A stretch of 64,000 nucleotides of DNA from Nitrospirota bacterium (GCA_963754875.1 CAVWHO010000015.1:32001-96000), one strand, 5' to 3'; shown: positions 9,298 to 37,282, counted from the first letter of the stretch. Made by a program: numbers and translations. Notes: generated by a model not told the origin, from the sequence alone.

Positions 9298-9421
9298 TCA
9301 GCCGGTACGAGCGACGGCGTCGTGTTTTTTATTGTTTCCATTCGATTTCCTCCCCTGCCCTATGTTATACTCTCCCTATTCGACGCTTCTGAAACAGTTC
9401 CAGGCGGATGGAAAACCAACG

Positions 9422-16022: not shown

Positions 16023-17111
16023 TCACGCCTGTATGTTCACTCCCGCTGCGGGGTTGCTTTCAAAATTGATCGTCGGATGATGATGAACAACGACGTGCCC
16101 GAGCCTGAGCCCTGCCGAAACGAACTGTCCCTTGAGGACGTCAGTCCCCTCCTGAAGAAGACGGACGAAATCGCTTTTTTCCGCCATGCAGGTGACATGC
16201 ATATACCCGCCCTGGGAAACCAGATTCACGCGCACCTTTCCCGCCCGTTCCAGATCGAGGTTCACTGTGCAGGTGAAGGACCGCTCGCCGACTTTGCCCC
16301 GGTCATACTCCCTCAGAATGACTTCTCCCTCCCGAAGTTCACGCCATACGAGCGGCAGGAAAAATTGCAACGTATCCGTAAGCTTCGACTGCAGTTGATA
16401 GAACTCGATGTTCCGGAGCACAGTATTCAACGCACCGAGCAATTCGTCGGTGTTCAGCCTGCCCCGCATGTGCTCCACGACAGCCGGCTCAAGGAACATG
16501 TCCTTGAGCCGAAGGAGCGAGGCCTTCAGATCGCCGGCGATAATGCGGCCCGCCTCGATGTCGGCCGACGAGCCTTCTGCCTCCATGCCGCTCACAAGGA
16601 TCCTGAGTTTGGCCTCAAAAAAAACGCCGCCGTTCTCGAAAACATCCTGAAGAGTTTTCCCTGACAGGTTTTCAATTTGGAGCAGAAAGCGGCTGATGAT
16701 GTCGGTCTCGGGGAGGCTCTCTTTGAGCGGTTCAGGGAGCGCGGCGAGCAGCCTGACGAGCTTCTCCATGCCCCCCGTTCCGGAATTGAGCCCCTCGAAC
16801 TTATTCAGCGCTGAAAGGATCGTGCTCTTGATGGAATCGGCTTCTTCCGCACCATGACCCGACAACCTGAGGTACACGCTGTTTTCCTGCCGCTCAACCC
16901 GCAGGTTAAGAGTATCCCCTTTTTGAAGCGGAACTTCGCTCTGCACCTCCAGCATGGTGTTCTTGAGTCTGATTGTCGCGCTGCTGTCCGCACGAACATC
17001 GATCACTTCAGCAGTCACGATCTCACCGGCACGCAGCAGCGTTTCCCTCCCGTTCATGAGCAAGGAAAAAACATGGCCGATTTGTGATAGGGGACTTCCC
17101 TGCATACCCAC
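16023..17111 (-). CDS. FliK-like (hook-length control C-terminal domain) protein
   Basis: C-terminal LDLERAGKVRVNL...L...F...GL; GVFFEAKL motif; paired with the FlhX-like gene. Confidence 0.7.
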   Translation of the reverse strand: MGMQGSPLSQIGHVFSLLMNGRETLLRAGEIVTAEVIDVRADSSATIRLKNTMLEVQSEVPLQKGDTLNLRVERQENSVYLRLSGHGAEEADSIKSTILSALNKFEGLNSGTGGMEKLVRLLAALPEPLKESLPETDIISRFLLQIENLSGKTLQDVFENGGVFFEAKLRILVSGMEAEGSSADIEAGRIIAGDLKASLLRLKDMFLEPAVVEHMRGRLNTDELLGALNTVLRNIEFYQLQSKLTDTLQFFLPLVWRELREGEVILREYDRGKVGERSFTCTVNLDLERAGKVRVNLVSQGGYMHVTCMAEKSDFVRLLQEGTDVLKGQFVSAGLRLGHVVVHHHPTINFESNPAAGVNIQA

Positions 17112-17557: not shown

Positions 17558-18763
17558 TTATACTATCTTTGAAAATCCACTGTATTCATCCGCATTAGGG
17601 TCCATTATCTTCCCGTACGTGTCCTTGCCTTTGAATAGAAAATAGACATGTGAAGGATCGATCGTCCCGTTGCCGTAGCCATTTTGCGAGATAGTAAAAG
17701 TTACGGAAGCGCTGTTGCTTTGGGAATCGTAAACCACATTCGTTGGCTGTGCAGGAAGGTCCACTTCTGTAGAAGGCACGGGCAAACCGAAATTATAAGT
17801 ATTGCTGATGAGTGGCCCATATTGCCTTCCAATTTGCCAGTTGGCTACATTCTCAACTGAGTTTTTATCCATTGCTTTGGAGAACGTGAAATTCATTGTA
17901 AAATCTTTTGTAGCGTTCGGAGCTGATAAAGATGAACTCAGGTCAGTCAGCGCCGTTCCCATACCGTCTGTTGTAATAAATCCATTTGTGTTGTAAGCTG
18001 CCAATAATTTCGGACTGGCGACCTTAGTCATGTAGGTCTGAAGGCTCGTGATCTGCTGGGTCGCTTTCAGATTCGTTAATGTTGCCAGCTGTTTCTGCGC
18101 ATTAGCAACATCACCCATATCGGCATAGGCGCTTCCCAGTTCAAGATAACTATTTGCAAACGTTTTATCCATGGTAATCGATTTATTAAGCTGAACAATC
18201 GCGTCTTTATTATCTCCCATTGCCCTTAATACCTGCCCCAGTCCATAGTATCCGGTAGCACTGGTGGGGGCAATCTGGGTGACCTTTATGAATTGGCTCT
18301 TGGCATCACTCAAACGGCCGGAGGTAAGATAAGCCTCCCCGAGCGAATACCGGTTGTCGGCGGAATTGTAATTTAAGCGCACAGCTTTCTCATACTCTGC
18401 TTGTGCATCTTTCAATTGTCCGTTTTTAAAGTATATGTCACCGAGGGCCAGGTGAAAATTGTCCGCCGAGGGGAACACTTTGATAGCAGTTTTGTACGTT
18501 TTTATCGCATCGTCTGTTTTGTTCAGCTGAAGATAGGCCTTGGCCATGTAATCAAATGCCTTGGATGAATTATCAGAAGACAGAGAGAGAGCAGTAGTCT
18601 GTTTGAATTGTTTTACCGCTCCGGCGTAGTCTGTTTTTGTGTAGAGATCAATACCTCTCCCAAGTGCCAGGCCGGCCAAATTATCAATCTGATCCTGAGA
18701 GGCGACATTGCTTGTGAAAAGATAGTCGATTGATGACGCAGGTATGGGATCGCTATAACTCAT
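17558..18763 (-). CDS. TPR protein with C-terminal beta-rich (Ig-like) domain, sigma28-regulated
   Basis: About 6 TPR motifs; C-terminal FTFSKAMDKNSV.N..NW; no Sec signal. Confidence 0.8.
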   Translation of the reverse strand: MSYSDPIPASSIDYLFTSNVASQDQIDNLAGLALGRGIDLYTKTDYAGAVKQFKQTTALSLSSDNSSKAFDYMAKAYLQLNKTDDAIKTYKTAIKVFPSADNFHLALGDIYFKNGQLKDAQAEYEKAVRLNYNSADNRYSLGEAYLTSGRLSDAKSQFIKVTQIAPTSATGYYGLGQVLRAMGDNKDAIVQLNKSITMDKTFANSYLELGSAYADMGDVANAQKQLATLTNLKATQQITSLQTYMTKVASPKLLAAYNTNGFITTDGMGTALTDLSSSLSAPNATKDFTMNFTFSKAMDKNSVENVANWQIGRQYGPLISNTYNFGLPVPSTEVDLPAQPTNVVYDSQSNSASVTFTISQNGYGNGTIDPSHVYFLFKGKDTYGKIMDPNADEYSGFSKIV

Positions 18764-18840
18764 TCAAACCGTTCCTGAGATTCGCATTCTCTAAGGTATT
18801 TAGAGGCTGATAAATTACAAATAACATCTTCCTACCATTT

Positions 18841-18867
18841 TTATCGGCTAAGCAGTCGAAAACTTTA
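18841..18867 (-). promoter_or_regulatory. sigma28 (FliA) promoter of the TPR gene
   Basis: Minus strand TAAAGTTT-N11-GCCGATAA, exact consensus. Confidence 0.88.
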
Positions 18868-18913
18868 ACAGACTGTCAAAATTTTCGCTGTCATTTCATC
18901 ATGTTTATAACCC

Positions 18914-18949
18914 GTCAAATCATTGACATAAATTTTAAATGATGTCAAT
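18914..18949. promoter_or_regulatory. Palindromic putative enhancer-binding-protein sites
   Basis: GTCAA-atca-TTGAC (18914-27) overlapping ATTGACAT-N12-ATGTCAAT (18922-49), about 110-145 bp upstream of a sigma54 motif. Confidence 0.45.
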
Positions 18950-19056
18950 TTAATCATGCCATTATTTAGAGTGCCTCCATGCTATACAATAGAAATTACT
19001 TCTAAAAATCAGCATGTTATACATAATATTTTTATGGTTTATTCATTCTCGCGGCT

Positions 19057-19073
19057 TAGGCAATATATTTGCA
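19057..19073 (+). promoter_or_regulatory. Putative sigma54 promoter of the giant glycosyltransferase gene
   Basis: TAGGCAATATATTTGCA = GG-N10-GC with TTGCA. Confidence 0.5.
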
Positions 19074-19189
19074 AGTTCAAAAGAGAATCTAAAGCATCTT
19101 CAGCACTTAATATCTTCATCTCAGTGCAAGCAGACAACAAGTGATCATAATTCACATAAACCCTATTGCGGCTACAAGGAAGGCATTCA

Positions 19190-22100
19190 ATGATACATTG
19201 CATCGGTGATAGTCCTGTATATGTATTTACCGGAGTGGACACAATCGGTGGCAACGACATTCTCTTGGATTTCAAGACCTACCGGCTTGGCCCCCACACT
19301 GCGTATAATGCGATAACAAAATGGGATATAATCGAAAGCTTTTTAAAGAATTCCGTTAAACCAAGCGATTCGGTCATGTTTTGTTTTGGGGAGATCGACT
19401 GCAGAGTACATTTACAGAAGCAATCAGAGCTGCAGAAACGGCCCCTGGAAGACGTAGTGAGTGAGTGCGTGCAGAGATATTTTGCTGTATTCGAAAAGGC
19501 GAAACACTACGGTCATCAACTGCTTGCATGGAATGTCCCGGCGTCAAGCCTCAACAACGTGGGATACGGCGAGTACTCAACCTATGGCAATTGTAAGCAA
19601 AGAAATGAAGTAATCAGTCTGTTTAATAAACATCTCAAGCGGCTCTGCGAAAAAAACGGTGTTATTTTTATTTCGATCTTTGACAAACTCGTCGATGACG
19701 ACGGGCTGACCAATCCTCTTTATTATATGGATTCCATTCATCTCTCACAAAGGGCAATGCCGCTTATTCAGGAGGTGCTGCGAAACCACGGTATACGACT
19801 TTCTCCATTGCAGCGCGATGAAGGCCGACAGCTTGATTATCTGACCACGCTGGCGAAATCCGGCACTGCCCTGGAATTCCGCAACATCAAATCATCTGCA
19901 GGATCACTGCGACCGCAAATTTTGCAATTCCTGTCACGGACCTTTGGTCTTGAAACCTTTATAGAAACAGGAACTTTTATGGGCGATACCACTTTCATCG
20001 CCTCCGACATTTTCAAAACCGTGCACACCATAGAACTAAGTCCTGAATTGCACCAAAAAGCGGTAAAGCGATTTGAGAACCGTTCTCACGTTCACGTGCA
20101 TCATGGTGACTCCAGCAGTATATTCCCGGAGATACTCGGCCAAAATAATCAGAATGTGCTCTTTTGGCTGGATGGTCATTACAGCGAGGGAATCACGGCA
20201 AAAGGTGACGAAAACACACCCATCATCCAGGAATTGAAGGCGATCAAGAACGCACAGACAAAAAACGCAGTGATCCTCATCGATGATCTCAGGATGTTTG
20301 ACACGACGTGGGACCATATCCCCCTGGATTCGGCCGCACGGGGTTATCCAATGGCGACATCTCTGTGTGCTGCAATACAGGAGATAGATCCATCATATGA
20401 ATTCGCGGTTCTTGGCGATGTTTTTATGGCTTATCCAAAACGAGATCAGCAGGTAATCTCGCAAGTAGTTGCTGCCTGCACCATCAGCAGGCTTTACGAT
20501 GGGAGCAACTATGAACTGCAAGAAGTTTTGAAAGCTGAAGCGGTAATCGGCGCAGCGCAAAATGAAGAATTGTCGTTCCTGCAGTGTCTCTATGTGCATC
20601 TTATCGGATCGGAAGAATATGGTTTTGGCCAACATTACCGGCTTTGGGCTGCGCTCACCCAGGCTGCGAATAAAAAGTACGACAGGGCATGTAAGGAATT
20701 ACTGATCGCTATCAACCTCGGATGTGAACATTGGCGAGTCAACTGGTATCTCGCAAACGACGCTTATGAAGCCGGCTTTTATTCTCTTGCTGATAAATCT
20801 CTTGAAAAGGCTGAGCAGGCTTCGCCGGATTTTCAGGAAGCAATACACCTTAAGCAAAAGATAGCACGGGACCTGAGCGAACGGCGTCAGGAGAACAGTT
20901 TCACCAGGCAAGATCATCTGGAGATCGCCGTTCATCTGCAGAGAGCGGGAAGAACACAAGCAGCCCGTGATGAACTTCAGGCAATCCTGTCGGGCAATGC
21001 TTCTGACAAGGATGTTCTCTACGAGTACGCGAGTTGCCTCATCGAGGCGAAACAGCAAGAAGCCGCAAGCGAGCAATTACAGGATATATTGAAGCGTGAT
21101 CCTTCCTACGCGAACGCTCAGAATAGCCTGGGCGTGATCGCCTATCAACAAGGTCATCTTGATAAAGCCATGGAATATTTCGGCATGGCGTTATCGCAAG
21201 AGAATCTGAATCACCAGGCATTGCAAAATGCCTTGATTCTGTCTAAGCAACTCGGCATCAGCAATGAAGCATTGTGTATGCTTCGCGACATACTGGTTAA
21301 ATTTCCAAACGACTCAACTCTCGCTAACATTGCCCAACGGTTCATCGACGATCAAAAAAACGCCAAGAATCGGGAAAACACCAACTATGCAGCAAATGAG
21401 CAATTATCGTCTATGAAAAAAGGCAATAAATCTGCTGCGGCTACCGGCAAACCAGAAACCGGTTCATCGGCTGCAGCGGCGTCCGGGATTACTTCCGGAA
21501 GTGACTCACCGCATTCTAAGACATTCATCATTAACATGGTCTATGAGCATTTATCACAACAGCAGATGCATACCAAACATGCCGATTCGATTTCAATCAT
21601 CTGGTCGGCCGTCCCGCTCGAAGGCTGCGACGTATATGCATATGTGAATGCAAGCAGCTTTCGCGGACGAATCGGCGGCATACAGGTGTTGTTAATGCTG
21701 GAGCCGGTCGTCGTATTGCCCGGTGAATACAGCGAGGTTGTATGGAGAAACTTCGACTATGTTTTTACCATGTGCGATGCACTGGTCGGAACGCACCCAA
21801 GGTTCGTCAAAATACAGTATCCGCGCGCCGACTGGATCGTTCCGGCGGCGAGCACAGAAAACCTCGATGGGCGTCGGAATAATTATCCAACGGAATCGCG
21901 TGCAAATGCAATCTGTATGATTAACGGAAACAAGCATTCCTTCATTGAGAGTGAATTGTATTCTAAACGCATGGAAGCAGCACTCTGGTTCCATCTGCAC
22001 TCCGATATTCCGTTCGAGGTTTATGGACGGCCCCCGTTCGCATTACCCAATTACCGTGGCGCACTTTCACCCGAAAACAAACTCCCGACGCTATCGCACT

Positions 22101-25100
22101 TTCGCTACAGTCTCTGCTTCGAAAATACTAATCATCGAGAGTACTCTGCAGGATACATAACCGAAAAAATCCTCGATTGTCTGGAGACGCGCACCATCCC
22201 GATCTACCTTGGCGCTGTGAATATCGAACATTATGTCCCAAAAGAGTGTTTCATCGACATGCGCGAGTTCAAAAGCTATTCGCAATTGGACGCTAATCTG
22301 CGCTCAATGACCTCGGGAGAATATCTTCGCTTTATTGACAAGATAGATGATTGGGTCTCTCGGGGTGGCCTGCGCCCCTACTCCATTCACAGAGTTTATG
22401 ATAAGCTGGCGTCGCTTCTGGCTGGAACAGCACTTGCCCTGGAGTGGCAGAATGGCTTGGTTTTCAATCATGCAACAAAACAATGGCATCCTGTAATCTC
22501 TCCTGCCTTATGGACATGGAATGATCTGGCAAATGCTGACCCACCGGTGAGTGTTCTTCCACCGAGACGCGCCGGGCAGGATAGCAACGATCTTACAAGA
22601 CAAGAGAAGGCACACCAGCTGATCGATGAATTTGCCGAGTTCAAAGCCGATGCGGAGGAGAATATGAAATCAAATGCAGCATCGTTTTATAAAACGCTCT
22701 TGTCCGTCTGGCCAATTCACAATATTCCCCAGCAACAAAATGTCTTTGTGCATCCCGTTTGGCAAAAGCAGCTTACAGCTCTCGGAGAATTAATAACCCA
22801 GGGATTGCCCGAAAACTTCCTGCTTCACCCAATTTGCCGCGAAATGTTTGTACGGATTGGATGGAACAAACAGCAAGAGCATGAACTGTCCTATATCGAC
22901 CAGCTCAGCAGCAAACTTCGAAAAAAAATATACTCCTTAAAAGAGTCGCCAATCGGATCGATTCCCCTTGACTGTAAGAAACTGCCTCTTTCCGTGAATA
23001 CTCTCGGCATGATCTGGTATTTTGCGCGTATCCATGAACTTCTGGCAAAATCGCCTGCCACGGTTATTGAATTGGGTGGTGGTTTCGGCTCACTTGCCCG
23101 GGTATTCAAATCCCTTGGCAACCCCGCCCTCACCTATACCATAATTGATTTGCCGGAGATGCTGGCTCTTCAATACTTTTATCTCTCTGCGACCCTGGGA
23201 CGAGATGCAGTCGAAGCTCATGTCAAGCCTGATGAACGCGTTGTTCCCGGAAAAATCAACCTCTTTCCGGTTTATGGAATCGAAGCTCTGAATCTTTCTG
23301 CAGATCTTTTTGTATCAACCTTCGCCCTCTCCGAGACTCCCCGGTTCATGCAGGAGCATGTCTGCGGAATTAAGAATTTTTTCAATGCACCCTTTGTTTA
23401 TATAACCGGTCAGAATGTGACCGAACGGAGCGAGCTCGGATGGCAGCCTCCACAGACAATAGTCCAGCAAGCCCGCGACTCCCGCCAAAAGGTCGTAGTG
23501 AATCGTTTTCATATCGGCGACAACTATGAACTGATTGCTTCGCAACTTGTTCACGCCGGCTTAAACCATCCGGGGACTGCCGCACGATCACTGGGCGCGA
23601 GAGATGGCGGGAACGTTGTCCGGGAAGATACGCAGACAACAGCAACGCCGGCCCAACCAAATGCAAAAACAGTCGGGTTGACAGTCAGCAAAGACCGTGC
23701 GATGCAGTTGGAGGCTACCGTAAGAAGCTTTTTCAAGCATTGCAAAGACGCGGATCAGTTGCGCCTAAAAGTGCTTTATACAACCTCCAGCAATTTTCAT
23801 GAAGCCCAATATCAGCAACTAAAACACGAGTATCCTGCTGTGGATTTCGTCCGGGAGACTTCGTTTAAAAAAGACTTCTTGGCAGTTTTGTCGGATTTTC
23901 AATATGTCTTGTTCATGGTCGACGATAACATCTTCGTTCGCGACTTTTCACTTGTGCATGTCACTCAAAGTCTCGGCAATAATCCAGATGCCATCGGGTT
24001 TTCTCTCCGGCTGGGAAAAAACACGAACTACTGCTACATGTTAAACAGAGCACAAGCTGTCCCTCCTTTTCAATTGCTGGACTACAATATGCTGAAATTC
24101 AACTGGACGACTGGAGAATGCGATTTCGGGTACCCTCTGGAGCTGTCGAGTTCGCTTTATCGAACTGCGAGTATTCTTCCGCTGCTGCATCAGCTTGATT
24201 TCAAGAACCCGAATACCTTGGAAGCTGCCCTGGATCTCAACAAACACCGATTTGCGGCGGGGAATCAGCACCTCCTCTGTTACGCAACATCGGTGGCATT
24301 CTGCAATCCGATTAATAAGGTCCAGACAGTCTACAACAATAAATCCGGCGTTGACACTTCGTATTCGCCTAGCCTGCTTGCGAAGCTGTACAGCCAGGGT
24401 TCCAGAATAGACCTTGTTCCTTTCGAGAACTTCGAACCGAACTCGTGCCATCAGGAAATGAATTTCCGGTTCGCAACCCCTTCCGAAGAACACGCTGCAG
24501 CCGCCACAGGTGACAGGTCTGCCCAATCGCTTGTCTCCATTATCATACTCAACTACAATGGTTTGGAACATATCCGGCCCTGCCTGGAGTCGATTCAGCG
24601 GAATACCCCGGAGCGCCACGAGATCATCGTGGTCGATAATGCTTCGACCGATGGTTCAAAAGAAGAGCTCCGGTCTCGCAGGGACATCACTCTCGTGGAG
24701 AATCAGACGAATATCGGTTGCCCCCCCGCGCGCGCCCAGGCACTGACGCTCGCAACAGGCGATTATGTGGTCTTCCTCGATAATGATACCATCGTCACCC
24801 CGAGATGGCTGACGACGTTCCTCGAACATGCCAAAGCAAATCCCCTCATCGGGATCATGGGACCGCGTTCAAACTATGTGTCAGGTTCCCAGCTTGTTCC
24901 CAACGTACCTTATAAGGATATCCCCGGACTCGAGGCGTTCTCCCTGCAGCTTGCCGCGGAACACAGAGATCAGCTTACCCGGACACGCCGTCTTGTCGGT
25001 TTCTGCATGTTCGTTCGAAGGGAAGTGATCGATAAAATCGGCAACATTGACGAATCATTCGGCAAGTTTGGTTTTGAGGACGATGACTATACCTGGCGCG

Positions 25101-28100
25101 CACATATCGCCGGTTTTACTGCCGTGATCGCAAATGATGTTTTCATTCATCATACGGGCGGACCACAGGGACGTGGAAATCAGCAGTACAACCAGCTCCT
25201 GTTACAGGCATGGACAGTATTCAGGAACAAGTGGGAGCTGCCCGCGAATCTGGCCTACGGGTCGCCGTTCGATCTTTCGACCATTCTAACAAGGCCCTTT
25301 GATCCGCGAAAACATTATCTTCCCCTTGTTGCCCGGTCCGATATCAAGGCGATTGTCCGTGAAGCGTCGGACCGCTCCAGGGCCGCAGAGAAGCCGTCGG
25401 TGGCCTCCGTTGCCGCGAAGGCGATCAAAAAAGCCCGCGAGCTTCAGGAGAAGGACCGGCTTGAGGATTCCATCGCAGCGCTGATGGACGGCATCGCCCA
25501 GGCACCGGCTGATAAAGCGCTTTATCTCAGTCTCGCGGAGATCCTGATCGAGGCAAAGCGATATCAGGATGCTCTTGATGCGCTCAATTCCCTGCCTGAG
25601 GAAGGAAAGAACGACATTGTAGCGCTTGCATTGAGAGGATATTGCCACGACGGATTAGGACTCTTTGCCGAGGCACATGCCGATGCCGACCGTGTTCTGG
25701 CGCGGCAGCCGAATTCAGCCATGGCTCTGAATTTAAAAGGCGTGCTTGCGTACAAACAGGGAGACAGGGACGGCGCGGAGCGGTTCTTTGCCGCCGCTGT
25801 CGCCGCCGGCCCCGGCTACGGGGAGGCCTATGCCAACCTCGGCGTATTAAAATGGTCCGCGGACAGGAAAGAGGACGGCCTCCCCCTGCTCGAAAAAGGG
25901 TTTATTCTTTCTCCGACTGCGTCTGAACTTGTTTCGCTCTATCACACGGCGATCGTTTCGGAAGGCCTCTTTGCCCGCGCCGAAAAGTTCTTTCAAGAAG
26001 CAAAGGCGCTTCATCCGAACAACAAAAGGATAGCCTTCTTGCTGATCGATCTTTTGAACAAACAGGAGAAACACGACCTCGCCATGCGCGAAATCGAGCA
26101 GGCCATGATCCGCTTCGGCATCGACGACGGAATTCTGGCCGCAGCTCTCGATGTGCGCGGGAAGGTTGGCCCTCACCACATGATACCATCCGGCAAAACG
26201 GAAAAAACGTTGAGCCTCTGTATGATCGTAAAAAACGAGGAGCACTGCCTGGCAAATTGCCTAGCGAACGCGAAGCCCATAGTTCATGAAATGATTGTAG
26301 TGGATACAGGATCGAACGACCGGACCAAGCACATCGCCCATGCCTTCGGAGCCAAGGTGCTTGATTTCGAATGGACCGAGGACTTTTCCAAAGCCCGGAA
26401 CTTCTCCTTGTCAAAGGCTTCCGGGAGATGGGTCCTCGTTCTGGATGCAGATGAGGTAATCTCTCCTTCCGATTTTGCCGCTGTGCGCGAAATAGTAGAT
26501 ACTGCCGATCCTTCAAGGACGGCTTACAAGATAATGACGCGAAATTATTCAAATGAGGCGACCGAGCAGGGATGGAGGCAAAATCGCGGGGAGTACCCGG
26601 ATGAGGAGGCTGCGACGGGGTGGTTTCCCAGCGAAAAGGTCAGGATTTTCGTGAACGATGAACGCATCAGATTTGAAGCTCCCGTTCATGAATTAGTAGA
26701 GGGCTCGCTGCAAAAAGCGGCAATAGCAATCAAGCCGTGCACTATATCGGTCCACCATTATGGAAGACTCGATGCTAAAAAAAGGGCGACAAAGGGCGAA
26801 ACGTACTATCTCCTCGGCAAAAAAAAGATGGATGAACAAGGGGGCGACCTGAAGGCTTTGTTGGAACTCGGGATACAGGCAGGGGAATTGGGGAAATATG
26901 ACGAAGCTGTTCAGTTGTTTAAAAAGCTTGTGGATGCCGATCCGAAATATTCCAAGGCCCTATTCTATCTTGGCTATACTTATATGGTCCTCGGCCGGCA
27001 TCATGACGCCCTTCCCTATTGCAAAGAAGCGTATGCACTTGACCCCGGGGACAGGGAAGCCGCCGTTAAATATGCTCAATGTGAGATCGCGGTCGGAGAT
27101 ATTGCACTTGCCGTTTCTCTGCTTGAGGACATGGTCCGGAGGTCCCCTGATTCCATCGTTGCGGAAAGCCAGCTTGCAGTCGCGTACTGCGTTATTGGCG
27201 AGAGCGGGAAAGGGATTGCGATTCTTGACCGGCTGAGAGAAAAAAATGTGGACACTGCCTCTTTTGTCCGTGATCAGGCCGGCATTTTGCGTTCAGCAGG
27301 GAGGGTGGAAGATGCCCGGCGATTGTTGGCCGTAGCCGTGCAGGCCAATCATGCCTCGGCGAAGACGCAAAAACTTTTTGAGGAAGGTAAAACCGAAGAC
27401 AGGGAGAAGGAGACGATTGCACGACCAATGACGACCAAAGGGTTGACCTCCATCATTATTGCGGTACAGGAGGGTCAGGAGCATGTAAAACAATGTATCG
27501 AGGCCCTGGAACGCAATACTCCCGAAGAACATGAAATCGTCATGGTAACGAGCGGAGCGAACAGCGTGGAGATCGAACGTCTGAAACGATATTCTAAGAA
27601 GCGAAGGAATTATCGTGTGCTCGATGCCGGCGGCGCAGCGGGATACGCCGCATACCTCAATAAAGGCATTGCCGAAACCTCGGGTGAATTCATAGTTCTC
27701 TTATCTCCCAAGACACTGGCAACGGAGAACTGGTTGTCAGGCTTACGAGAGTGCATTGATTCCCCTTCCCCCGCAGGAGTAGGGATTGTTGGCCCGATGA
27801 CCAATGATAAGGCCGGAATACAGAAGGTACCCCGGATCGATTATGAGCCTCACGAGGGTCTTGAAGGGTTTGCTCGCGATTTCAGAGAAAGAAACCGACA
27901 CCGGCGCGTCAGCGCCAAATATGTCGCTGGATTCTGCATGCTGTTGCGCCGTGACCTTGTGGAAAAGGTTGGGTTGTTCGATGAAAATCTGGGCAATAGC
28001 AACAGTGAGGATGAGGATTATTGTCTCAGGGCCGCACTTGCGGGTTTTAAAACCATTATCGCGGGAGACGTATTCATTCATCGAGGCGACGAGGAAGATA

Positions 28101-30220
28101 CAAGAAGATATCGTCGGCCGCTGCTGCAGAAGTGGACTGCCATCGGCAGGGCGTCCGAGTTAAAGAAAAAATTGACCGCAAGAGATGCAATCGAGCGCGC
28201 GAATAAGCTATTCGAAAAAGGTCAGGACAATGATGCGGTGACTGAAATTATGAAGGGGATTTCTCATTCCCCCGAGGAAGCGACTCTCTTTTATTTTCTT
28301 GCTGGAATGTTGATTGAGGCAAAGCGTTACCCGGACGCCCTCGATGCGCTTAAGGGCCTGCCTGAAGCGGCCCAGCGCAACAGAAAAGGTCTTGAGTTGA
28401 CCGGCTATGCCCAAGAGGGTATGGGTCGAGATGTTGAGGCCGAGGCGACGGCCGATCTACTCCTAGCTCTCTATGCGGAATCCGCAGCAGCAATGAATCT
28501 TAAGGGGGTACTTTCCTATAAGCGAGGAGATAAAGACGGCGCTGCTGTTTTCTTTCAACGGGCCAGAGCGCTGGACCCGGGCTATGGCGAGCCATTAATC
28601 AATCTCGGCATTTTGCATTGGGCCGCGGACCAACGGAGTGAAGCCGTGCAGCTCCTGGAAAAGGGATTTATTCTGTCCCCCCTGGCCCAAGATAATGTAT
28701 CCGCATATTATAATGCCGTGTCCGCCCTACAAGACTGGGACAGGGCCGCGCTGGTCTTCAAGGAGGCTGCGTCTCTCCATCCTTGGAACAGGAGACTCGC
28801 TTTTTTCCTCATAGAGCTCCTGCTCCAGCAGGGCGATCTCAAGGAGGCAGCGCGGGAGATTGAGGACGGAATAATTGCATTCGGCAATGGCGACGGGCTA
28901 CTGGATTCTGCCCTTGAGATCCGCGCGAAAGTCGGTCCGAAGCAAATCGACAGAGCCATTCGGAAAAAAGGAACGTTATCGGTCTGCATGATCGTCAAGA
29001 ATGAAGAACAGCACATGGCGCGTTGTCTGAGGAGTCTTGGACCGGTAGCGGATGAAATGATCGTCGTGGACACGGGGTCGACAGACAGGACAAAGGACAT
29101 AGCCCGCGCCTTTGGGGCAAAGGTTTATGATTTTGCCTGGACAAACGATTTTTCAGCGGCGAGAAACTTTTCTTTAGAGAAGGCGAGTGGGGATTGGGTC
29201 CTCGTCTACGATGCCGATGAGGTGTTGTCTCCCCTTGATTATTCCAATTTGTTCGACATCCTGCGAGCGGGGACGAAGCATAAGGCGGCGTATTCCCTGG
29301 TAACCCGGAACTATACCATGAACACCCCCCAGGGCTGGACCGCAAATAAAGGGCAATATCCCAAGGAAGAGGCTGGCAGCGGGTGGATGCCCACAGCCAA
29401 GGTGCGGCTTTTCGTGAATGACCCTCGTGTTCGTTTCGAAGGACCAGTTCATGAGGTGGTCGAACACTCACTGCTCAGAGCGGGCATACCGGTCAAAGCA
29501 TGCGCCGTCCCGGTCCATCATTACGGCAGGCTCAATGTGGAAAAGACCGCGGCCAAGGCGGAGGAGTACTATGTCCTGGGGAAGAAGAAGCTGGAAGAAA
29601 AAGGGGGCAGCCACCGCGCGCTTCGGGAACTCGCGATCCAGGCTGGTGAGCTCGGGAAATATGAAGAAGCGATCGAGCTATGGAAGCGGCTTATCGCTCA
29701 AGGCGCAAGGGGCGAAGATCTGACTCTCGCCCAATTCAATATGGGAAGTTATTACTTTGTTCTCGAGAACTATGAGGATGCCCTTGCGATGTCGAAAAAA
29801 GTTTTGGAACTCGACCCTACGATGAAAGAGAACATCATCGTCTATGCCTGCAGCGAGCTTTGCGTCGGCGACGTGAAAATGGCGATCCCGGCCCTCAAGA
29901 AAATCCCTGACGAGGGCGCGGACTATCCGCAGGCGATTGCCGCGCTTATGATAGCGCACCTATTGAACGGCGACAGAGACGACGGAATTGCCTGCATACG
30001 CAAGCTCCACGGCATCCAGGTAAACGTTCCTGAATATTTATATACTTTTGCAACGTATTTGATAAAAGCGGACAGAATCGAGTATGCGGTCATCCTGCTT
30101 GAAGCGGCGATCGAAACCGGCAATCTTCATCAAGATACCCATGCTCTCCTTGCGAAGTGTCGGCGCAGACTGGGTGCCGGTGATGCTTCAGCGCGCATGG
30201 TCATGCGACAGCATTCTTAA
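19190..30220 (+). CDS. Giant (~3,676 aa) multidomain glycosylation protein: SGNH - SAM methyltransferase - TPR - GT10 - sugar O-methyltransferase - GT-A - (GT2-TPR-GT2-TPR)x2
   Basis: RBS AAGGAAGG before ATG 19190; IGDS...FGEIDCR...DSIH; IETGT...WLDGH; SLCFEN...GYITEKI; IELGGGFG...IIDLPE; SKDRAMQL...MVDDNIF; SIIILNYNG...FLDNDT; SLCMIVKNEE...DADE and SVCMIVKNEE...DADE; multiple TPR blocks; uninterrupted ORF. Confidence 0.9.
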   Translation: MIHCIGDSPVYVFTGVDTIGGNDILLDFKTYRLGPHTAYNAITKWDIIESFLKNSVKPSDSVMFCFGEIDCRVHLQKQSELQKRPLEDVVSECVQRYFAVFEKAKHYGHQLLAWNVPASSLNNVGYGEYSTYGNCKQRNEVISLFNKHLKRLCEKNGVIFISIFDKLVDDDGLTNPLYYMDSIHLSQRAMPLIQEVLRNHGIRLSPLQRDEGRQLDYLTTLAKSGTALEFRNIKSSAGSLRPQILQFLSRTFGLETFIETGTFMGDTTFIASDIFKTVHTIELSPELHQKAVKRFENRSHVHVHHGDSSSIFPEILGQNNQNVLFWLDGHYSEGITAKGDENTPIIQELKAIKNAQTKNAVILIDDLRMFDTTWDHIPLDSAARGYPMATSLCAAIQEIDPSYEFAVLGDVFMAYPKRDQQVISQVVAACTISRLYDGSNYELQEVLKAEAVIGAAQNEELSFLQCLYVHLIGSEEYGFGQHYRLWAALTQAANKKYDRACKELLIAINLGCEHWRVNWYLANDAYEAGFYSLADKSLEKAEQASPDFQEAIHLKQKIARDLSERRQENSFTRQDHLEIAVHLQRAGRTQAARDELQAILSGNASDKDVLYEYASCLIEAKQQEAASEQLQDILKRDPSYANAQNSLGVIAYQQGHLDKAMEYFGMALSQENLNHQALQNALILSKQLGISNEALCMLRDILVKFPNDSTLANIAQRFIDDQKNAKNRENTNYAANEQLSSMKKGNKSAAATGKPETGSSAAAASGITSGSDSPHSKTFIINMVYEHLSQQQMHTKHADSISIIWSAVPLEGCDVYAYVNASSFRGRIGGIQVLLMLEPVVVLPGEYSEVVWRNFDYVFTMCDALVGTHPRFVKIQYPRADWIVPAASTENLDGRRNNYPTESRANAICMINGNKHSFIESELYSKRMEAALWFHLHSDIPFEVYGRPPFALPNYRGALSPENKLPTLSHFRYSLCFENTNHREYSAGYITEKILDCLETRTIPIYLGAVNIEHYVPKECFIDMREFKSYSQLDANLRSMTSGEYLRFIDKIDDWVSRGGLRPYSIHRVYDKLASLLAGTALALEWQNGLVFNHATKQWHPVISPALWTWNDLANADPPVSVLPPRRAGQDSNDLTRQEKAHQLIDEFAEFKADAEENMKSNAASFYKTLLSVWPIHNIPQQQNVFVHPVWQKQLTALGELITQGLPENFLLHPICREMFVRIGWNKQQEHELSYIDQLSSKLRKKIYSLKESPIGSIPLDCKKLPLSVNTLGMIWYFARIHELLAKSPATVIELGGGFGSLARVFKSLGNPALTYTIIDLPEMLALQYFYLSATLGRDAVEAHVKPDERVVPGKINLFPVYGIEALNLSADLFVSTFALSETPRFMQEHVCGIKNFFNAPFVYITGQNVTERSELGWQPPQTIVQQARDSRQKVVVNRFHIGDNYELIASQLVHAGLNHPGTAARSLGARDGGNVVREDTQTTATPAQPNAKTVGLTVSKDRAMQLEATVRSFFKHCKDADQLRLKVLYTTSSNFHEAQYQQLKHEYPAVDFVRETSFKKDFLAVLSDFQYVLFMVDDNIFVRDFSLVHVTQSLGNNPDAIGFSLRLGKNTNYCYMLNRAQAVPPFQLLDYNMLKFNWTTGECDFGYPLELSSSLYRTASILPLLHQLDFKNPNTLEAALDLNKHRFAAGNQHLLCYATSVAFCNPINKVQTVYNNKSGVDTSYSPSLLAKLYSQGSRIDLVPFENFEPNSCHQEMNFRFATPSEEHAAAATGDRSAQSLVSIIILNYNGLEHIRPCLESIQRNTPERHEIIVVDNASTDGSKEELRSRRDITLVENQTNIGCPPARAQALTLATGDYVVFLDNDTIVTPRWLTTFLEHAKANPLIGIMGPRSNYVSGSQLVPNVPYKDIPGLEAFSLQLAAEHRDQLTRTRRLVGFCMFVRREVIDKIGNIDESFGKFGFEDDDYTWRAHIAGFTAVIANDVFIHHTGGPQGRGNQQYNQLLLQAWTVFRNKWELPANLAYGSPFDLSTILTRPFDPRKHYLPLVARSDIKAIVREASDRSRAAEKPSVASVAAKAIKKARELQEKDRLEDSIAALMDGIAQAPADKALYLSLAEILIEAKRYQDALDALNSLPEEGKNDIVALALRGYCHDGLGLFAEAHADADRVLARQPNSAMALNLKGVLAYKQGDRDGAERFFAAAVAAGPGYGEAYANLGVLKWSADRKEDGLPLLEKGFILSPTASELVSLYHTAIVSEGLFARAEKFFQEAKALHPNNKRIAFLLIDLLNKQEKHDLAMREIEQAMIRFGIDDGILAAALDVRGKVGPHHMIPSGKTEKTLSLCMIVKNEEHCLANCLANAKPIVHEMIVVDTGSNDRTKHIAHAFGAKVLDFEWTEDFSKARNFSLSKASGRWVLVLDADEVISPSDFAAVREIVDTADPSRTAYKIMTRNYSNEATEQGWRQNRGEYPDEEAATGWFPSEKVRIFVNDERIRFEAPVHELVEGSLQKAAIAIKPCTISVHHYGRLDAKKRATKGETYYLLGKKKMDEQGGDLKALLELGIQAGELGKYDEAVQLFKKLVDADPKYSKALFYLGYTYMVLGRHHDALPYCKEAYALDPGDREAAVKYAQCEIAVGDIALAVSLLEDMVRRSPDSIVAESQLAVAYCVIGESGKGIAILDRLREKNVDTASFVRDQAGILRSAGRVEDARRLLAVAVQANHASAKTQKLFEEGKTEDREKETIARPMTTKGLTSIIIAVQEGQEHVKQCIEALERNTPEEHEIVMVTSGANSVEIERLKRYSKKRRNYRVLDAGGAAGYAAYLNKGIAETSGEFIVLLSPKTLATENWLSGLRECIDSPSPAGVGIVGPMTNDKAGIQKVPRIDYEPHEGLEGFARDFRERNRHRRVSAKYVAGFCMLLRRDLVEKVGLFDENLGNSNSEDEDYCLRAALAGFKTIIAGDVFIHRGDEEDTRRYRRPLLQKWTAIGRASELKKKLTARDAIERANKLFEKGQDNDAVTEIMKGISHSPEEATLFYFLAGMLIEAKRYPDALDALKGLPEAAQRNRKGLELTGYAQEGMGRDVEAEATADLLLALYAESAAAMNLKGVLSYKRGDKDGAAVFFQRARALDPGYGEPLINLGILHWAADQRSEAVQLLEKGFILSPLAQDNVSAYYNAVSALQDWDRAALVFKEAASLHPWNRRLAFFLIELLLQQGDLKEAAREIEDGIIAFGNGDGLLDSALEIRAKVGPKQIDRAIRKKGTLSVCMIVKNEEQHMARCLRSLGPVADEMIVVDTGSTDRTKDIARAFGAKVYDFAWTNDFSAARNFSLEKASGDWVLVYDADEVLSPLDYSNLFDILRAGTKHKAAYSLVTRNYTMNTPQGWTANKGQYPKEEAGSGWMPTAKVRLFVNDPRVRFEGPVHEVVEHSLLRAGIPVKACAVPVHHYGRLNVEKTAAKAEEYYVLGKKKLEEKGGSHRALRELAIQAGELGKYEEAIELWKRLIAQGARGEDLTLAQFNMGSYYFVLENYEDALAMSKKVLELDPTMKENIIVYACSELCVGDVKMAIPALKKIPDEGADYPQAIAALMIAHLLNGDRDDGIACIRKLHGIQVNVPEYLYTFATYLIKADRIEYAVILLEAAIETGNLHQDTHALLAKCRRRLGAGDASARMVMRQHS

Positions 30221-30594
30221 ATTGCCGATCCCCGTAGACCTGCAGCAAGATTCAAATTTATATTGATGAGAATATTGAGCTTCTCGGATTCGGGATCAGC
30301 CATGACATCGAGAATTTGTTTGTCGATAAAAAGACTTAACGTTAAAATGTCTTTTCTGATCTGCAGCGGGAGCGGGTTGTCCTGCCGGGCAAGCTCTGAC
30401 TGAATGATGGTCCATATCTGCTGATTGAGACGCAATGCATCACTAAGCCTCTGGAAATGCCCTTCCTCTGCCCACCTGGCCTGGCAATCCTGAAGCTTCA
30501 TCGCCGCATTATTGAGGGCTGCTGCTTCGATGTCCCGTCCGGACATGGTTGATTTTTGAACATTCTTATAAACCTGCATTTGCGTTGCGTACAC
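30217..30594 (-). CDS. flaF: Flagellar biosynthesis regulator FlaF
   Basis: GTG start after AGGAGG; R.IEAAAL, AL..NQ.IW, DNPLP..IR..IL.LS.FI, LININ.N.AAGL. Confidence 0.9.
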   Translation of the reverse strand: MYATQMQVYKNVQKSTMSGRDIEAAALNNAAMKLQDCQARWAEEGHFQRLSDALRLNQQIWTIIQSELARQDNPLPLQIRKDILTLSLFIDKQILDVMADPESEKLNILININLNLAAGLRGSAI

Positions 30595-30973
30595 GATTAA
30601 TAACCTCCTGCTCATATTCGATGAGCTTTCGAGCGGCCTTCATGGCCTGGTAATACTCATTCTGTAAGATATGCTGACTGATGAGAGCAATTAAACCCCT
30701 GGTACTTGGAGCGGCCTCTAATACTTCTTTTACCAATTGCCAGTACACCTTATGGTGTTTGGCCAGATGGCTTTCATCGACGTACATGAGTTGAATGGCA
30801 AAGTATATGCGGCGACACGGTGAATCCGCTTCCTTTGCACTCAGAATATCCTTCTCGCGAAGAATGGGAACGTTATTTTCTACAAGAAAATCGCTCCGGC
30901 TTTTCCCGTTCGTGATGACTGCCCCGCCGATAATCAGGCGTTCGTGCGGTTTTAAAACGATTTTTAGAGCCAT
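30566..30973 (-). CDS. flbT: Flagellin translational regulator FlbT
   Basis: MALKI.LKP.ER.IIGGAV, ILREKDI, A.SPCRRIYF.IQLMY, YYQA.K..R.LI.YE. Confidence 0.92.
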   Translation of the reverse strand: MALKIVLKPHERLIIGGAVITNGKSRSDFLVENNVPILREKDILSAKEADSPCRRIYFAIQLMYVDESHLAKHHKVYWQLVKEVLEAAPSTRGLIALISQHILQNEYYQAMKAARKLIEYEQEVINRVRNANAGL

Positions 30974-31011: not shown

Positions 31012-31473
31012 TTATACTTTTACATTAATGATGGTTCCGCTCTGGACATGGTCCGCTTTCTGCGTCAGTTGTGGACTGATCGCGTCTTTGTACTGCTTAA
31101 GGTCCACGAGTGCGGCAGCAACTTCCTGGTCCGTAGACTGGTCCGTCAGCTTGGTGGCCGTCAGCGTATCCTTCTGTGCAGGAGCGAGAGGTGACTTCTT
31201 TATCTCATCCTGAACTCCTTTGATCCCTTTGATCAAATCCAGGCGCTGCGGGCTTCCGATGGGGAAAAAGGGAGGAAAGCTGAACATGATCGTTTCCAGC
31301 TGGTCTTTAATATAATTGGTGTCGGCCAGATTGGTCAGCACTTGAGCGGTGGCCCCAGAAGACCTGGCGGCGTCTGAAGAACGATTCTGGACGGCGGCTG
31401 ATGTGCCGTTTTTCTTCGCCGTGCCTGCACCATCGGCCGACGCTGTTTGAAGGTTTATGCCGGTGACATCCAT
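31012..31473 (-). CDS. Hypothetical protein between flagellin and flbT
   Basis: RBS GAGGAG; low-complexity N-terminus, FPPFFP motif, C-terminal GTIINVKV. Confidence 0.7.
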   Translation of the reverse strand: MDVTGINLQTASADGAGTAKKNGTSAAVQNRSSDAARSSGATAQVLTNLADTNYIKDQLETIMFSFPPFFPIGSPQRLDLIKGIKGVQDEIKKSPLAPAQKDTLTATKLTDQSTDQEVAAALVDLKQYKDAISPQLTQKADHVQSGTIINVKV

Positions 31474-31553: not shown

Positions 31554-33104
31554 CTAGGCGAACAGCCTCAGGACCGACTGTGCTGCCTGTGAAGAGAGTG
31601 ACAATGCTGTCGTACCAAGAGACTGACGAGTTTGCAGCATCAGCATGTTGGCGCCTTCCTGGTTCGTATCAGCCAGCGTCAGGTTGTCCGAGCCCGTGGT
31701 GAGAACATTGGTCAGTTGTGTCGAAAAATCCTGACGTGTCTGGATGATGCTGAGGTTGTTGGACATTGATCCTGAATCGTTCTGCAAGGTCGTCAGAGCA
31801 TCATTCAGTTTGTTGATGTCCTTTGTCACCGCATCGTTACTCACCCACCCGTTCTGCGCCTCCGACAGCCCGAGTCCGCTGCTGGTAGCATCGAAGCCCT
31901 GCACGTTGAGGGAATGCCCCCCTCCGAAGTTCACGACGAGCGCGCTTGGTGACGCGGTGGTCAGGAGGTTAACACCCTGGAACGAGGAGTCCGCTGCCAT
32001 AGTGTCGATCTGGCTCAGCATGGATTTATACTGATCTACCAGACCCTGCAACTTTGAATTAGAGCCGCTGCCTGCAGGGATAACCGTGCCTTGAATGGAC
32101 TGAGACGAAATAATATCCGTGTTGGCGATGTTTGTTCCACCGGTGGTGGTGAGTGCTTTAATGTTCAAGGTGTTACCGCTCACTGAAGCAACCTGGAACG
32201 GGCCGATGGTGCTGCTCACAGTCGTATCTTTCCCGATTGAAGCTGCAAGGTTACTGGCGACCTGCGAGTTAGAATATAAGTGGCTGTCGTCTATTCCAAT
32301 GCTGAACTTGTCCGCAGCTGCCGTTCCGGTGACCGCTGTAAACGTGGTGCTGCCGATCATAACCGTATCGCCAACCTTAACATTGTTAAGGGTGAGCATT
32401 TCGGTCGCGAAGGAATTACCTACTCCGTTGCCTTTGACTATCGACACGTTCAGATCACTCGACGCCGTAATATCGGTGTTAGCGATGCTTGTTCCACCCG
32501 TGGTGACGAGCCCTTTAATGGTCAGGGTGTTGCCGTTCACTGAATCAACCTGGAATGGACCGATGGTGCTGCTCACCGTCGCGTCTGCCGAGATTGACGC
32601 AGCAAGGTTATTGGCAACCTGCGCGCTGGTATACAAGGTGCTATCGTTAGTACCAATGCTGAACTGGTCCGCAGCTGCTGTTCCCGTGACCGCCGTAAAC
32701 GTGGTCTTGCCGAGGGTAATTGTATCACCCACCTTTATAGTGTTAAGAGTAACTGCAGCGGTATCGTATTGGCTGCCTGACGACCCCGTTGAACCGAGAC
32801 CGGTGGCTGACTGGGCCAAAGCTTTGGCGGCGTTAATCAGGGTGGTAATGGACGAGATGCCCTGGTTCGCGGCCTGGATCGTCTGGATTCCATTGGACAT
32901 GCCGTCTTTGTAGCCGGCGAGGTCCGCAGCGCGGTTGTTAAGCGCCTGAGCTGCGAAGAAGTTGACCGGATTGTCCAGCGCGCTGTTGACCGCCTTGCCG
33001 GTGGAAAGACGTTGCTGGGTTCTGTTTAGAAGAGTTACGGTTGACTGAAGACTTACGAGGTTTGCCCTCATTCCTGATGTTAATGAGATATCATTGATAG
33101 CCAT
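31554..33104 (-). CDS. fliC: Flagellin with tandem-duplicated variable domain
   Basis: N-terminal RLSTGKAVNSALDNP; DSSFQGVNLL; C-terminal LADTNQEGANML.LQTRQ.L...ALSL..QA.QSVLRLF. Confidence 0.95.
   Translation of the reverse strand: MAINDISLTSGMRANLVSLQSTVTLLNRTQQRLSTGKAVNSALDNPVNFFAAQALNNRAADLAGYKDGMSNGIQTIQAANQGISSITTLINAAKALAQSATGLGSTGSSGSQYDTAAVTLNTIKVGDTITLGKTTFTAVTGTAAADQFSIGTNDSTLYTSAQVANNLAASISADATVSSTIGPFQVDSVNGNTLTIKGLVTTGGTSIANTDITASSDLNVSIVKGNGVGNSFATEMLTLNNVKVGDTVMIGSTTFTAVTGTAAADKFSIGIDDSHLYSNSQVASNLAASIGKDTTVSSTIGPFQVASVSGNTLNIKALTTTGGTNIANTDIISSQSIQGTVIPAGSGSNSKLQGLVDQYKSMLSQIDTMAADSSFQGVNLLTTASPSALVVNFGGGHSLNVQGFDATSSGLGLSEAQNGWVSNDAVTKDINKLNDALTTLQNDSGSMSNNLSIIQTRQDFSTQLTNVLTTGSDNLTLADTNQEGANMLMLQTRQSLGTTALSLSSQAAQSVLRLFA
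32100..32768 (-). repeat. Intragenic tandem repeat in flagellin, period 357 nt (119 aa)
   Basis: KVGDT...TTFTAVTGTAAAD.FSIG...QVA.NLAASI..D.TVSSTIGPFQV...TTGGT.IANTDI occurs twice; CGATGGTGCTGCTCAC at 32204 and 32561. Confidence 0.9.
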
Positions 33105-35745: not shown

Positions 35746-36511
35746 ATGGGGTTACGCCCCGGAGATAAAATCAGTTATAGACTGATGCCGGATATTGACC
35801 TCTACAGTGCCACCGTGCAGTTTGTAGACGAGAAGACCATGGAACTCCGGATGGATGCCGATGCTCCGGCCGTTGTCAAAAGCGGGCAATACGTCATGAT
35901 CAACGAATTGGACACCGATATCGAGCACTACTCCGAAGTGACTTCCCGGGACGGACAAACACTGCGGTTGCGGCGGATGTGGACCGGGAAGCGCGGCTTT
36001 TTCCGGGTGGACGATGTATTTCCCGTCATTTACCGGATCGCGACGTAGAATGCAAAGACCGGTGGACGGAGTCCCGCATCTTTTCCGGATTCGGACCGGG
36101 CGTGGATGAGCTCGAACGTGCCCGATGAGACGGTCAGCCCCAGGGTCTGGAAAATGCTCGTCGACATCAATGCCAAGCTCGAGCTGGTCCTGGAGAAGCT
36201 CAATCTGGAAAACGAAGGGCTCACCCAGTGCGGAAAGTATTCCCGTGAATATCAGCGCGTCGGGAATCCGTTTTTCTCTGGACCACCCGGTCGAGATCGG
36301 GAGTACTCTTCGAACTCAAGATGCTGCTTCCGGTCTATCCCCCCGTCGGGGTCCTTGCTCACGGCGTCGTGGTCAGGGTTGAAGCGCCGGATGAGCGGCA
36401 GGTATGAAACATCGCTGCGCTTTATCGACCTCGTTGACGAGGTCCGCGATGTCATCATCCAGTACACACTCGAAGCGACAGCGGGAGATCATCCGGCGGC
36501 AGCGGGATTGA
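35746..36511 (+). CDS. PilZ-domain (YcgR/FlgZ-like) protein, several frameshifts
   Basis: KRGFFRVD (RxxxR) and VNISASG (D/NxSxxG) motifs, with HGVVVR and QREIIR segments spread over different frames. Confidence 0.7.
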
Positions 36512-36519
36512 TGCAAAGC

Positions 36520-37277
36520 ATGGACAGAGCGACAGCTTTATAGGGATCATGTTCGGGCTCGGGGCCATTATCGGCGGCAACCTGCTGGAAGGCGGCAGGA
36601 TCGATTCGATCCTCCAGCCGACGGCCGCGCTCATCGTTTTCGGCGGGACCGCCGGGGCGACGTTTCTCAGTTTCCCGTTCCGGGACGTGCTCAAGGCCAT
36701 TGCCTCCCTTCGCTTTGTGCTGTTCAGTGATACGCGGGACCGCAGAAAGGTGATCGCGAGCATCATACGGTTTTCGCAGATCGCGCGCCGCAGCGGGTTC
36801 GTTGCCATCGAATCGGAGATCAACAATCTCGACCACCCCTTTTTCAGAAAGGCGCTCGCCCTGGCGACGGCCGGCATGATTCCCAAACTGCTCGTCGAAA
36901 CCACGGAGCAGATCAACAGCACCTTCGAGGACGAAAGCAGACGGATCGCCAAAGTGTACGAGACCGCCGGCGGTTTTGCGCCCACCATCGGCATCCTCGG
37001 CGCCGTCCTCGGCTTGATCCACGTCATGGAAAACCTGTCCGATCCAGCGAAGCTTGGAGCAGGTATCGCCGTAGCGTTCGTGGCGACCATATACGGCGTG
37101 GGTTCGGCAAACCTGATCCTGCTTCCCATAGCGAAAAAGCTCATTCACCGGTTGAACCGCGAGCTGGCGCTCCGTGCTATGATCATTGAAGGGGTCATCG
37201 GGATCCAGTCCGGTGTCAACCCGCACTACCTCGAGGAACGGCTCAAATCGTTCATGGAAGGAACTGACAGGGATTGA
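36520..37277 (+). CDS. motA: Stator A subunit, MotC/PomA-like; frameshift in the first 10 codons
   Basis: MDRATA + IGIMFG; AALIVFGGT, GGFAPTIGILGAVLGLIHVM, IAVAFVATIYG, G.NP. Confidence 0.88.
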
Positions 37278-37282
37278 CGGCC

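Follow-up and report, generated by a model that had tools for sequence, protein, structure and literature searches.

A stretch of 64,000 nucleotides from a Nitrospirota bacterium (GCA_963754875.1, CAVWHO010000015.1:32001-96000; hereafter the window) carries a giant open reading frame (ORF; protein P0001) that faces a flagellin gene cluster and encodes a string of enzyme-like domains, mostly glycosyltransferases (GT) and methyltransferases. The frame occupies positions 19190 to 30220 on the plus strand and, as a preliminary description of this DNA had proposed, encodes 3,676 amino acids (aa) with zero internal stops. The start codon is the ATG at 19190; a TTG lies in the same frame at 19166. 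No longer ORF is present in the genome, which measures 4.3 Mb and is 90% complete. The TAA codon of the giant ORF (30218-30220, plus strand) overlaps that of flaF (30217-30219, minus strand), the two genes sharing 4 bases, again as previously described. The whole interval between flaF and a gene for a tetratricopeptide repeat (TPR) protein on the left border of the island consists of this one ORF, without sugar-synthesis genes. A promoter and terminator scan of positions 18600-19300 returned 1 site against 2.7 expected, and none on the plus strand. The protein was earlier thought to have no obvious transmembrane segment; indeed, no clear membrane segment was found along its length, the hydropathy maximum over 19 residues being 1.47. 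The neighbouring genes are arranged as follows:

16023..17111, minus strand: hook-length gene resembling fliK, to the island's left (PF02120, E 1.7e-11)
17558..18763, minus strand: TPR protein at the island's left edge; in G008 and G012, too, a homologue adjoins the island
30217..30615, minus strand: flaF (PF07309, E 3.9e-30; NF009435 above cut-off)
30566..30973, minus strand: flbT (PF07378, E 2.2e-44)
31012..31473, minus strand: ORF of 153 aa, conserved, lying between the flagellin gene and flbT, without Pfam or NCBIfam match
31554..33104, minus strand: flagellin, 516 aa, the predicted substrate (PF00669)

Domains of the giant protein were called with Pfam and NCBIfam profiles against curated cut-offs and from motif alignments across family copies. 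All nine enzyme-like domains of the preliminary map, four of them of the GT2 family (PF00535), were recovered at about the same positions, along with five TPR blocks; motifs are intact in eight of the nine, GT2c being the one that departs. From the N to the C terminus, the protein comprises:

19190..19804, plus strand: SGNH-family domain, esterase or O-acyltransferase (PF13472, E 6.4e-6, below the curated cut-off)
19832..20479, plus strand: MTa, class I S-adenosylmethionine (SAM) methyltransferase-like domain (Methyltransf_24; PF13578, E 1.8e-5)
20492..21379, plus strand: TPR block 1, which comes after MTa in 21 other proteins too
21512..22549, plus strand: GT10-like glycosyltransferase (PF00852, E 1.8e-15, 57.5 bits against a cut-off of 23.9)
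22607..23569, plus strand: NanM-like putative sugar O-methyltransferase (TIGR04371, 56.8 bits, cut-off 44)
23657..24484, plus strand: unclassified GT-A fold glycosyltransferase-like domain (S-K-D-R and D-D-N motifs; structural model)
24521..25369, plus strand: GT2a, sugar-extending type, motifs intact (PF00535, E 4.6e-28)
25442..27364, plus strand: first TPR-GT2b-TPR unit, a duplicate of the terminal unit
26192-26824, plus strand, within it: GT2b, GmaR/SunS-like, D-A-D-E intact (GmaR 22ao, E 9.9e-30; SunS 7msp, E 2.5e-9)
27422..28174, plus strand: GT2c, probably a pseudo-glycosyltransferase (one motif aspartate left of three)
28175..30217, plus strand: terminal TPR4-GT2d-TPR5 unit, the family's conserved core (motif and family alignments)
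28952-29569, plus strand, within it: GT2d, D-A-D-E intact, 59% identical to GT2b

The SGNH domain contains G-D-S, G-E-I-D and D-x-x-H motifs, which 10-11 of 11 family copies share, and with them the Ser, the oxyanion block and the D-x-x-H of the triad; Pro follows the Ser, versus His in 9 of the 11. Its atlas match is an SGNH cluster (0.96), and its nearest solved relative, sialate O-acetylesterase 6njc, is weakly matched (E 0.0035). O-acetyltransferases of the PatB/OatA type are also SGNH proteins. The domain may be an esterase, and acylation is unproven. MTa scores 26.0 against the PF13578 cut-off of 26.3, with motifs conserved in 15-17 of 17 copies and weak matches in the PDB. A single-sequence model of SGNH plus MTa, with a predicted local distance difference test (pLDDT) score of 49.5, was too poor for a structure search and was not used. 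The GT10-like domain aligns with the H. pylori fucosyltransferase 2nzw (E 1.2e-9 over 73 residues), including the alpha-1,3-fucosyltransferase motif. Its F-E-N and E-K motifs are intact, the F/Y-E-N and the K being kept in 28/28 family copies, and its donor is likely to be a GDP-sugar. A metagenome scan with the NanM-like domain alone returned no matches.

The domain that follows has no Pfam or NCBIfam match and resembles solved structures weakly in sequence (SpsA, E 0.013). Its model (pLDDT 94.5, 107 sequences) superposes on the GT-A enzyme GnT-I (1fo9) with Z 13.8 and a root-mean-square deviation of 4.2 over 193 aligned residues. The search identified 492 stand-alone relatives of 155-494 aa, nearly all of the listed ones without a Pfam match; among atlas clusters, those closest to the domain consist mostly of phage proteins. 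This group (including P0078-P0197) is presented as a candidate unclassified glycosyltransferase family. The adjoining GT2a gives a rhamnosyltransferase match far under the cut-off (TIGR01556, E 5.6e-15) and generic PDB matches.

GT2b and GT2d both fall in the GmaR/SunS clade, with D-T-G-S and D-A-D-E intact and a TPR block on the C-terminal side (TPR3 and TPR5, respectively). The three parts of the first unit are 50%, 59% and 35% identical to TPR4, GT2d and TPR5. Between the two units, GT2c has T-S-G where its sister domain has D-N-A-S, and S-P-K in place of D-N-D; it keeps only the catalytic Asp of E-D, the nucleotide-binding and DxD-type Asp being lost. Loss is frequent at this position: the GT2 slot directly before the core has all three Asp in 32/91 family copies versus 105/118 elsewhere, counts that include related, non-independent sequences. 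Judged by these motifs, GT2c is probably a pseudo-enzyme.

The central region of the flagellin encoded across the overlap is exposed and consists of 30% Ser plus Thr; it contains a 115-aa internal duplication with copies 64% identical, and orthologues in relatives span 283 to more than 600 aa. The best NCBIfam matches of this flagellin, together with the flaF/flbT pair, resemble the alphaproteobacterial arrangement, which we take to be unexpected for this phylum. The genome has two PF00669 matches, the flagellin and a 374-aa frame that, from its sequence, we take for a candidate hook-associated protein. The 153-aa ORF has counterparts at the same place in 5/6 relatives (32-41% identical) and is a possible unnamed flagellar factor.

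The giant protein is not alone. A whole-length homologue search over lengths of 2,021-6,433 aa, limited to 2,258 scored candidates, yielded a further 74 proteins of 2,000-4,100 aa, two of them longer than the giant ORF. It is less singular than the preliminary description suggested, being one large member of a family. In 63 of the 74 homologues a GmaR-like GT2 lies within 330 aa of the C terminus, and 15 have at least two initiating domains. The N termini vary, with GT, FkbM, acetyltransferase, sulfotransferase, methyltransferase and radical-SAM domains in precomputed Pfam lists and in our domain map. One carrier of a family member, Syntrophorhabdus aromaticivorans, is in culture.

The linkage to flagellin genes suspected earlier was upheld in relatives, in sets of loci that overlap with one another and with the homologue set and are not to be summed. 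Among 14 genomes of the same genus, all six with flaF have a core gene of 1,461-2,922 aa converging on it. The front ends of these genes differ, sugar-synthesis genes are found upstream of them, and in G008 the core gene and flaF are separated by two further tailoring genes. The same interval in relatives holds nucleotide-sugar, Maf-like, sulfotransferase and methyltransferase genes. A draw of 401 genomes from the phylum, in which kin are not independent, contained the core in 28 (a lower bound, since the core-bearing G237 was missed), flaF in 32 and both in 23; core and flaF were on one contig within 10 kb in 22 of these 23, convergent in 21. The giant ORF is the longest of the 28 core frames. 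In a genome collection, 31 of 77 loci match the TPR-plus-GT2 core, the other 46, mainly GT2-domain matches, being left out; flagellin adjoins the core in 18 of the 31, does not in 5, and the locus is too short in 8. All 22 flagellin candidates tested match PF00669.

Several of these loci have features of their own. A Maf-like PF01973 domain is fused to the core in G001 (L009:936-5657), and sulfotransferase domains occur in the front end of the G008 gene (L014:4254-16055), pointing, by sequence, to nonulosonate-like or sulfated glycans. Two 408-aa flagellin copies lie downstream of a 3,403-aa member at L019, and at L021 the flaF-flbT-flagellin block is flanked on both sides by core copies. In six Ignavibacteria- or Bacteroidota-labelled loci (L052, L054, L062, L066, L072, L088), separate multi-GT2 ORFs of 1,500-2,500 aa precede a stand-alone GT2-TPR gene, and flagellin comes next in 5/6, a parallel, partly fused form.

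Phylogenies of individual modules, built from the 13 proteins that hold GT10, GT-A, GT2a and the terminal GT2, showed the family to be mosaic. Between the terminal-GT tree and those of GT10, GT-A and GT2a, rejection is mutual (approximately unbiased test, p <= 1.6e-6), and the GT10 tree conflicts with those of GT-A and GT2a (p <= 0.002). The GT-A and GT2a trees are congruent (p 0.10-0.12), and the two domains are adjacent in 33 other proteins. In 26 proteins the slot before GT-A was labelled by motif: 9 have a NanM-like methyltransferase there, 5 an FkbM-like segment and 4 a hexapeptide acetyltransferase. GC content at third codon positions is about 0.50-0.54 in the front modules and 0.54-0.63 behind them, against a genome median of 0.66; the island as a whole has low GC and hypervariable content between conserved borders. 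In-frame recombination would assemble and diversify such a gene, joining a conserved C-terminal core beside flaF to a swappable N-terminal cassette.

Together, these features make it likely, in our view, that the giant ORF represents, in fused form, a flagellin glycosylation island: a single predicted-soluble polypeptide that builds a short methylated O-glycan. The notion of a single chain uniting initiating, elongating and tailoring domains, already put forward in the preliminary description, is supported. The predicted substrate, sugars, order of steps and activities draw on sequence and on analogy with known systems. The TPR blocks would bind flagellin in the cytoplasm, before export, and GT2b and GT2d would attach the first sugar to Ser/Thr in its Ser/Thr-rich middle. 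GT2a and the unclassified GT-A domain would extend the glycan; the GT10-like domain would add a GDP-sugar, for which fucose is plausible here; MTa and the NanM-like domain, both SAM-dependent, would methylate, capping or decorating the chain; and the SGNH domain would remove or transfer an O-acetyl group. GT2c would be a catalytically dead spacer. Throughout, the glycan would stay on flagellin, the order of events being set by the acceptor specificity of each domain and not by its position in the chain, and sugar donors would come from outside the island.

This scheme is proposed because of the homology to GmaR, the binding of flagellins by the TPR domain of FlmG, and the order of N-acetylglucosamine (GlcNAc), rhamnoses and methylation in C. 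difficile. GmaR of Listeria is the best natural PDB match for GT2b, the first of the two initiating domains and the one used in the search; it is reported to transfer GlcNAc to flagellin and, like SunS, has a GT2 followed by TPRs, with a flagellar context in the case of GmaR (PMC9638930). GmaR is a 637-aa protein whose single GT domain is accompanied by an antirepressor domain, whereas in the 3,676-aa chain two such units follow six other enzyme-like domains, each unit having an additional TPR block on its N-terminal side. Caulobacter FlmG is reported to have a TPR domain that binds flagellins in a FlaF/FlbT-type flagellar system (PMC7591256). FlmG differs in having a GT-B fold and transferring pseudaminic acid, while the initiating domains here are GT2 and the genome's NeuB match is weak. 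Flagellin glycosylation islands are variable and place GT2s, methyltransferases, Maf-like and sugar-synthesis genes by flagellin in Geobacillus (PMC5109656); in C. difficile type B, GT1 adds GlcNAc and GT2, which carries a methyltransferase domain, adds two rhamnoses (PMC5207246). These islands (Geobacillus; C. difficile GT1/GT2/GT3) use separate genes or small fusions in contrast to the one ORF here. By sequence, then, the giant ORF resembles a GmaR-type flagellin glycosyltransferase plus such an island, its core showing the features of the GmaR clade.

Multi-domain glycan enzymes have precedents. A methyltransferase and two rhamnosyltransferases are reported in one chain in WsaE of the Geobacillus S-layer (PMC2943079), three GT domains in chlorovirus A111/114R (PMC7826918) and four in the 1,666-aa Moumouvirus ma468 (PMC10117803). 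All three share with the giant ORF the grouping of several transferase or methyltransferase domains in one chain for one glycan; they differ in having three or four domains versus nine and in being without a TPR-flanked protein-initiating core or a documented family of swappable cassettes, and WsaE acts on a lipid-linked glycan.

Genes for possible donors are present outside the island: gmd and rmlB/C/D score above cut-off, and fcl reaches 497 of 500 bits. Of 17 loci of the GT10 clade, 3 are beside HddA/HddC (GDP-heptose), 1 has a close gmd and 2 have Fcl-like genes, the rest being uninformative; a search for HddA in the giant-ORF genome gave no match. Fucosylation by the GT10-like domain is plausible from sequence but unproven, and the donor may vary among relatives. 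A nonulosonic-acid glycan, suggested by the NanM label, was set aside, as the NeuB match is just 48.7 bits in a 90% complete genome. Elsewhere, at L103:2966-5310 (G000:C10), a second gmd/fcl pair has gmd in two frames and a shortened fcl; intact copies lie elsewhere.

Other explanations were weighed against a flagellin glycosylation machine. The assembly is a single one with one contig on record and the ORF has an internal duplication, as a chimera or collapsed repeat might; we give that reading next to no credence. The duplicated TPR-GT2-TPR units are only 66% identical in DNA, therefore too divergent to collapse in assembly, and the continuity of the frame is indicated by the fact that all 8 junction types examined recur in 2-33 other proteins. 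A 2,566-aa homologue has identical length in 6/14 cluster members from separate sources, and 11 kb in frame would not be expected from mis-assembly. On these sequence comparisons the giant ORF is real and an artefact very unlikely. Another reading takes the core alone as functional and the N-terminal cassette as a passenger of recent capture that came without its donors. The missing sugar-synthesis genes, which relatives have, would fit it, as would the decay of GT2c, the absence of an HddA match and of close counterparts of the G003 island genes, and the weak NeuB match. It is nonetheless most improbable: the frame is unbroken, the motifs conserved in the family are retained in GT2a and in all five N-terminal enzyme domains, GDP-fucose and dTDP-rhamnose genes exist elsewhere, and the genome is 90% complete.

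Several observations weigh against the favoured reading, the first of them against flagellin as the sole substrate. In one family, five genomes that are 96-100% complete have giant genes of 1,584-3,357 aa that are intact, yet no flagellin or FlhA match (L194, L196, L197, L111 and L112, in G205, G231, G291, G237 and G347, respectively); hence a flagellum is not required for the machine to persist. These genes have 2-4 GmaR-like domains each and often lie among TPR proteins; two other genomes of the family keep the giant gene beside flaF. Four more core loci lie apart from the flagellin genes of their genome. Core and flagellin distances are uncorrelated over 22 loci (Mantel rho 0.08, p 0.26), with no sign of co-divergence. 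Finally, the giant-ORF island has no sugar-synthesis genes, and for the island genes of G003, which has the most similar cassette, best matches in this genome are none or 29-45%; therefore some domains may lack a donor. The protein might instead, or in addition, glycosylate another surface protein made in the cytoplasm (hook, hook-associated or non-flagellar), with the duplicated unit serving the second substrate. The flagellum-less carriers, the 15 homologues with at least two initiating domains and the missing co-divergence would agree with this, but we hold it to be unlikely, given the tight linkage to flaF, flbT and flagellin in 22/23 genomes and the fact that a search for substrates beside the flagellum-less copies returned regulators, hydrogenase genes and TPR proteins, and nothing convincing. 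Lipopolysaccharide and S-layer glycans are made by lipid-linked routes, unlike which the giant ORF is without a clear membrane segment.

The preliminary description had also suggested that domain order might encode glycan structure, as in non-ribosomal peptide and polyketide synthases. In a true assembly line of this kind, chain position would dictate sugar order, read from the C to the N terminus, the TPR blocks handing the flagellin-bound glycan along. There is a coarse polarity, with the initiating GT at most 330 aa from the C terminus in 63/74 homologues and tailoring domains toward the N terminus; GT-A and GT2a travel as a pair, preceded by an exchangeable tailoring slot. The likeness to those synthases extends to a megadalton-class modular chain, recombining modules and optional tailoring slots. 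The order itself did not hold up. Nine homologues have SGNH-GT10-MTa-TPR versus SGNH-MTa-TPR-GT10 in the giant ORF and G385; four others are the N-terminal half without a core; L119 has GT10-TPR and MTa-TPR as separate genes; and module trees conflict. Neither a Pfam match to a carrier domain nor a match to a crude phosphopantetheine-type carrier motif was found in the giant ORF, no module is repeated bar the core duplication, and the probably dead GT2c sits mid-chain. The polarity equals the gene order of unfused islands, and would also be expected from fusion of an ordered operon, because those islands place the initiating gene beside flagellin. An assembly line in the strict sense is accordingly improbable. 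Somewhat less doubtful, and still only a tentative proposal, are combinatorial protein-glycan synthases with a local grammar, in which a TPR-guided core starts, GT pairs extend, and the adjacent slot sets methyl, acetyl or sulfate, multi-core versions being retargeted to some other protein in flagellum-less lineages.

Elsewhere in the window, an Ap4A phosphorylase-like gene (9410-10326, plus strand) occupies two frames when compared with its 313-aa homologue from G001; a DDE transposase (10391-11554) lies next to it. The MotA/MotB stator genes form two pairs of differing type (36549-37942 and 39464-41124, plus strand), downstream of a PilZ-type gene (35746-36474) that appears interrupted relative to G011. 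At 61024-62748 (minus strand), the bifunctional ornithine lipid synthase OlsF is matched in two halves, each by an ORF of its own.

Flagellin glycosylation by GT2-TPR proteins, variable islands and glycan enzymes of three or four domains are already known. A literature search, whose coverage left out most subscription journals, found no description of the present giant fusions, and a single-chain family of 1,400-4,100 aa, in which swappable cassettes accompany a fixed initiating core and whose records are labelled Nitrospirota or Desulfobacterota, appears to be undescribed. The value of the finding lies in this family and its swappable slots and not in a proven code. Each gene would list the building steps of one glycan in a single readable sequence; should the local grammar be true, glycans would be readable from, and reprogrammable through, one ORF. 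That genomes without a flagellum keep orphan copies suggests a second glycoprotein besides flagellin. If module strings were matched to the glycans of flagellins, many orphan domains would receive donors and linkages in one go, including the GT-A family, whose stand-alone and phage-associated relatives number in the hundreds; such pairing would also probe whether tethering or domain order has a bearing on how glycans are made.

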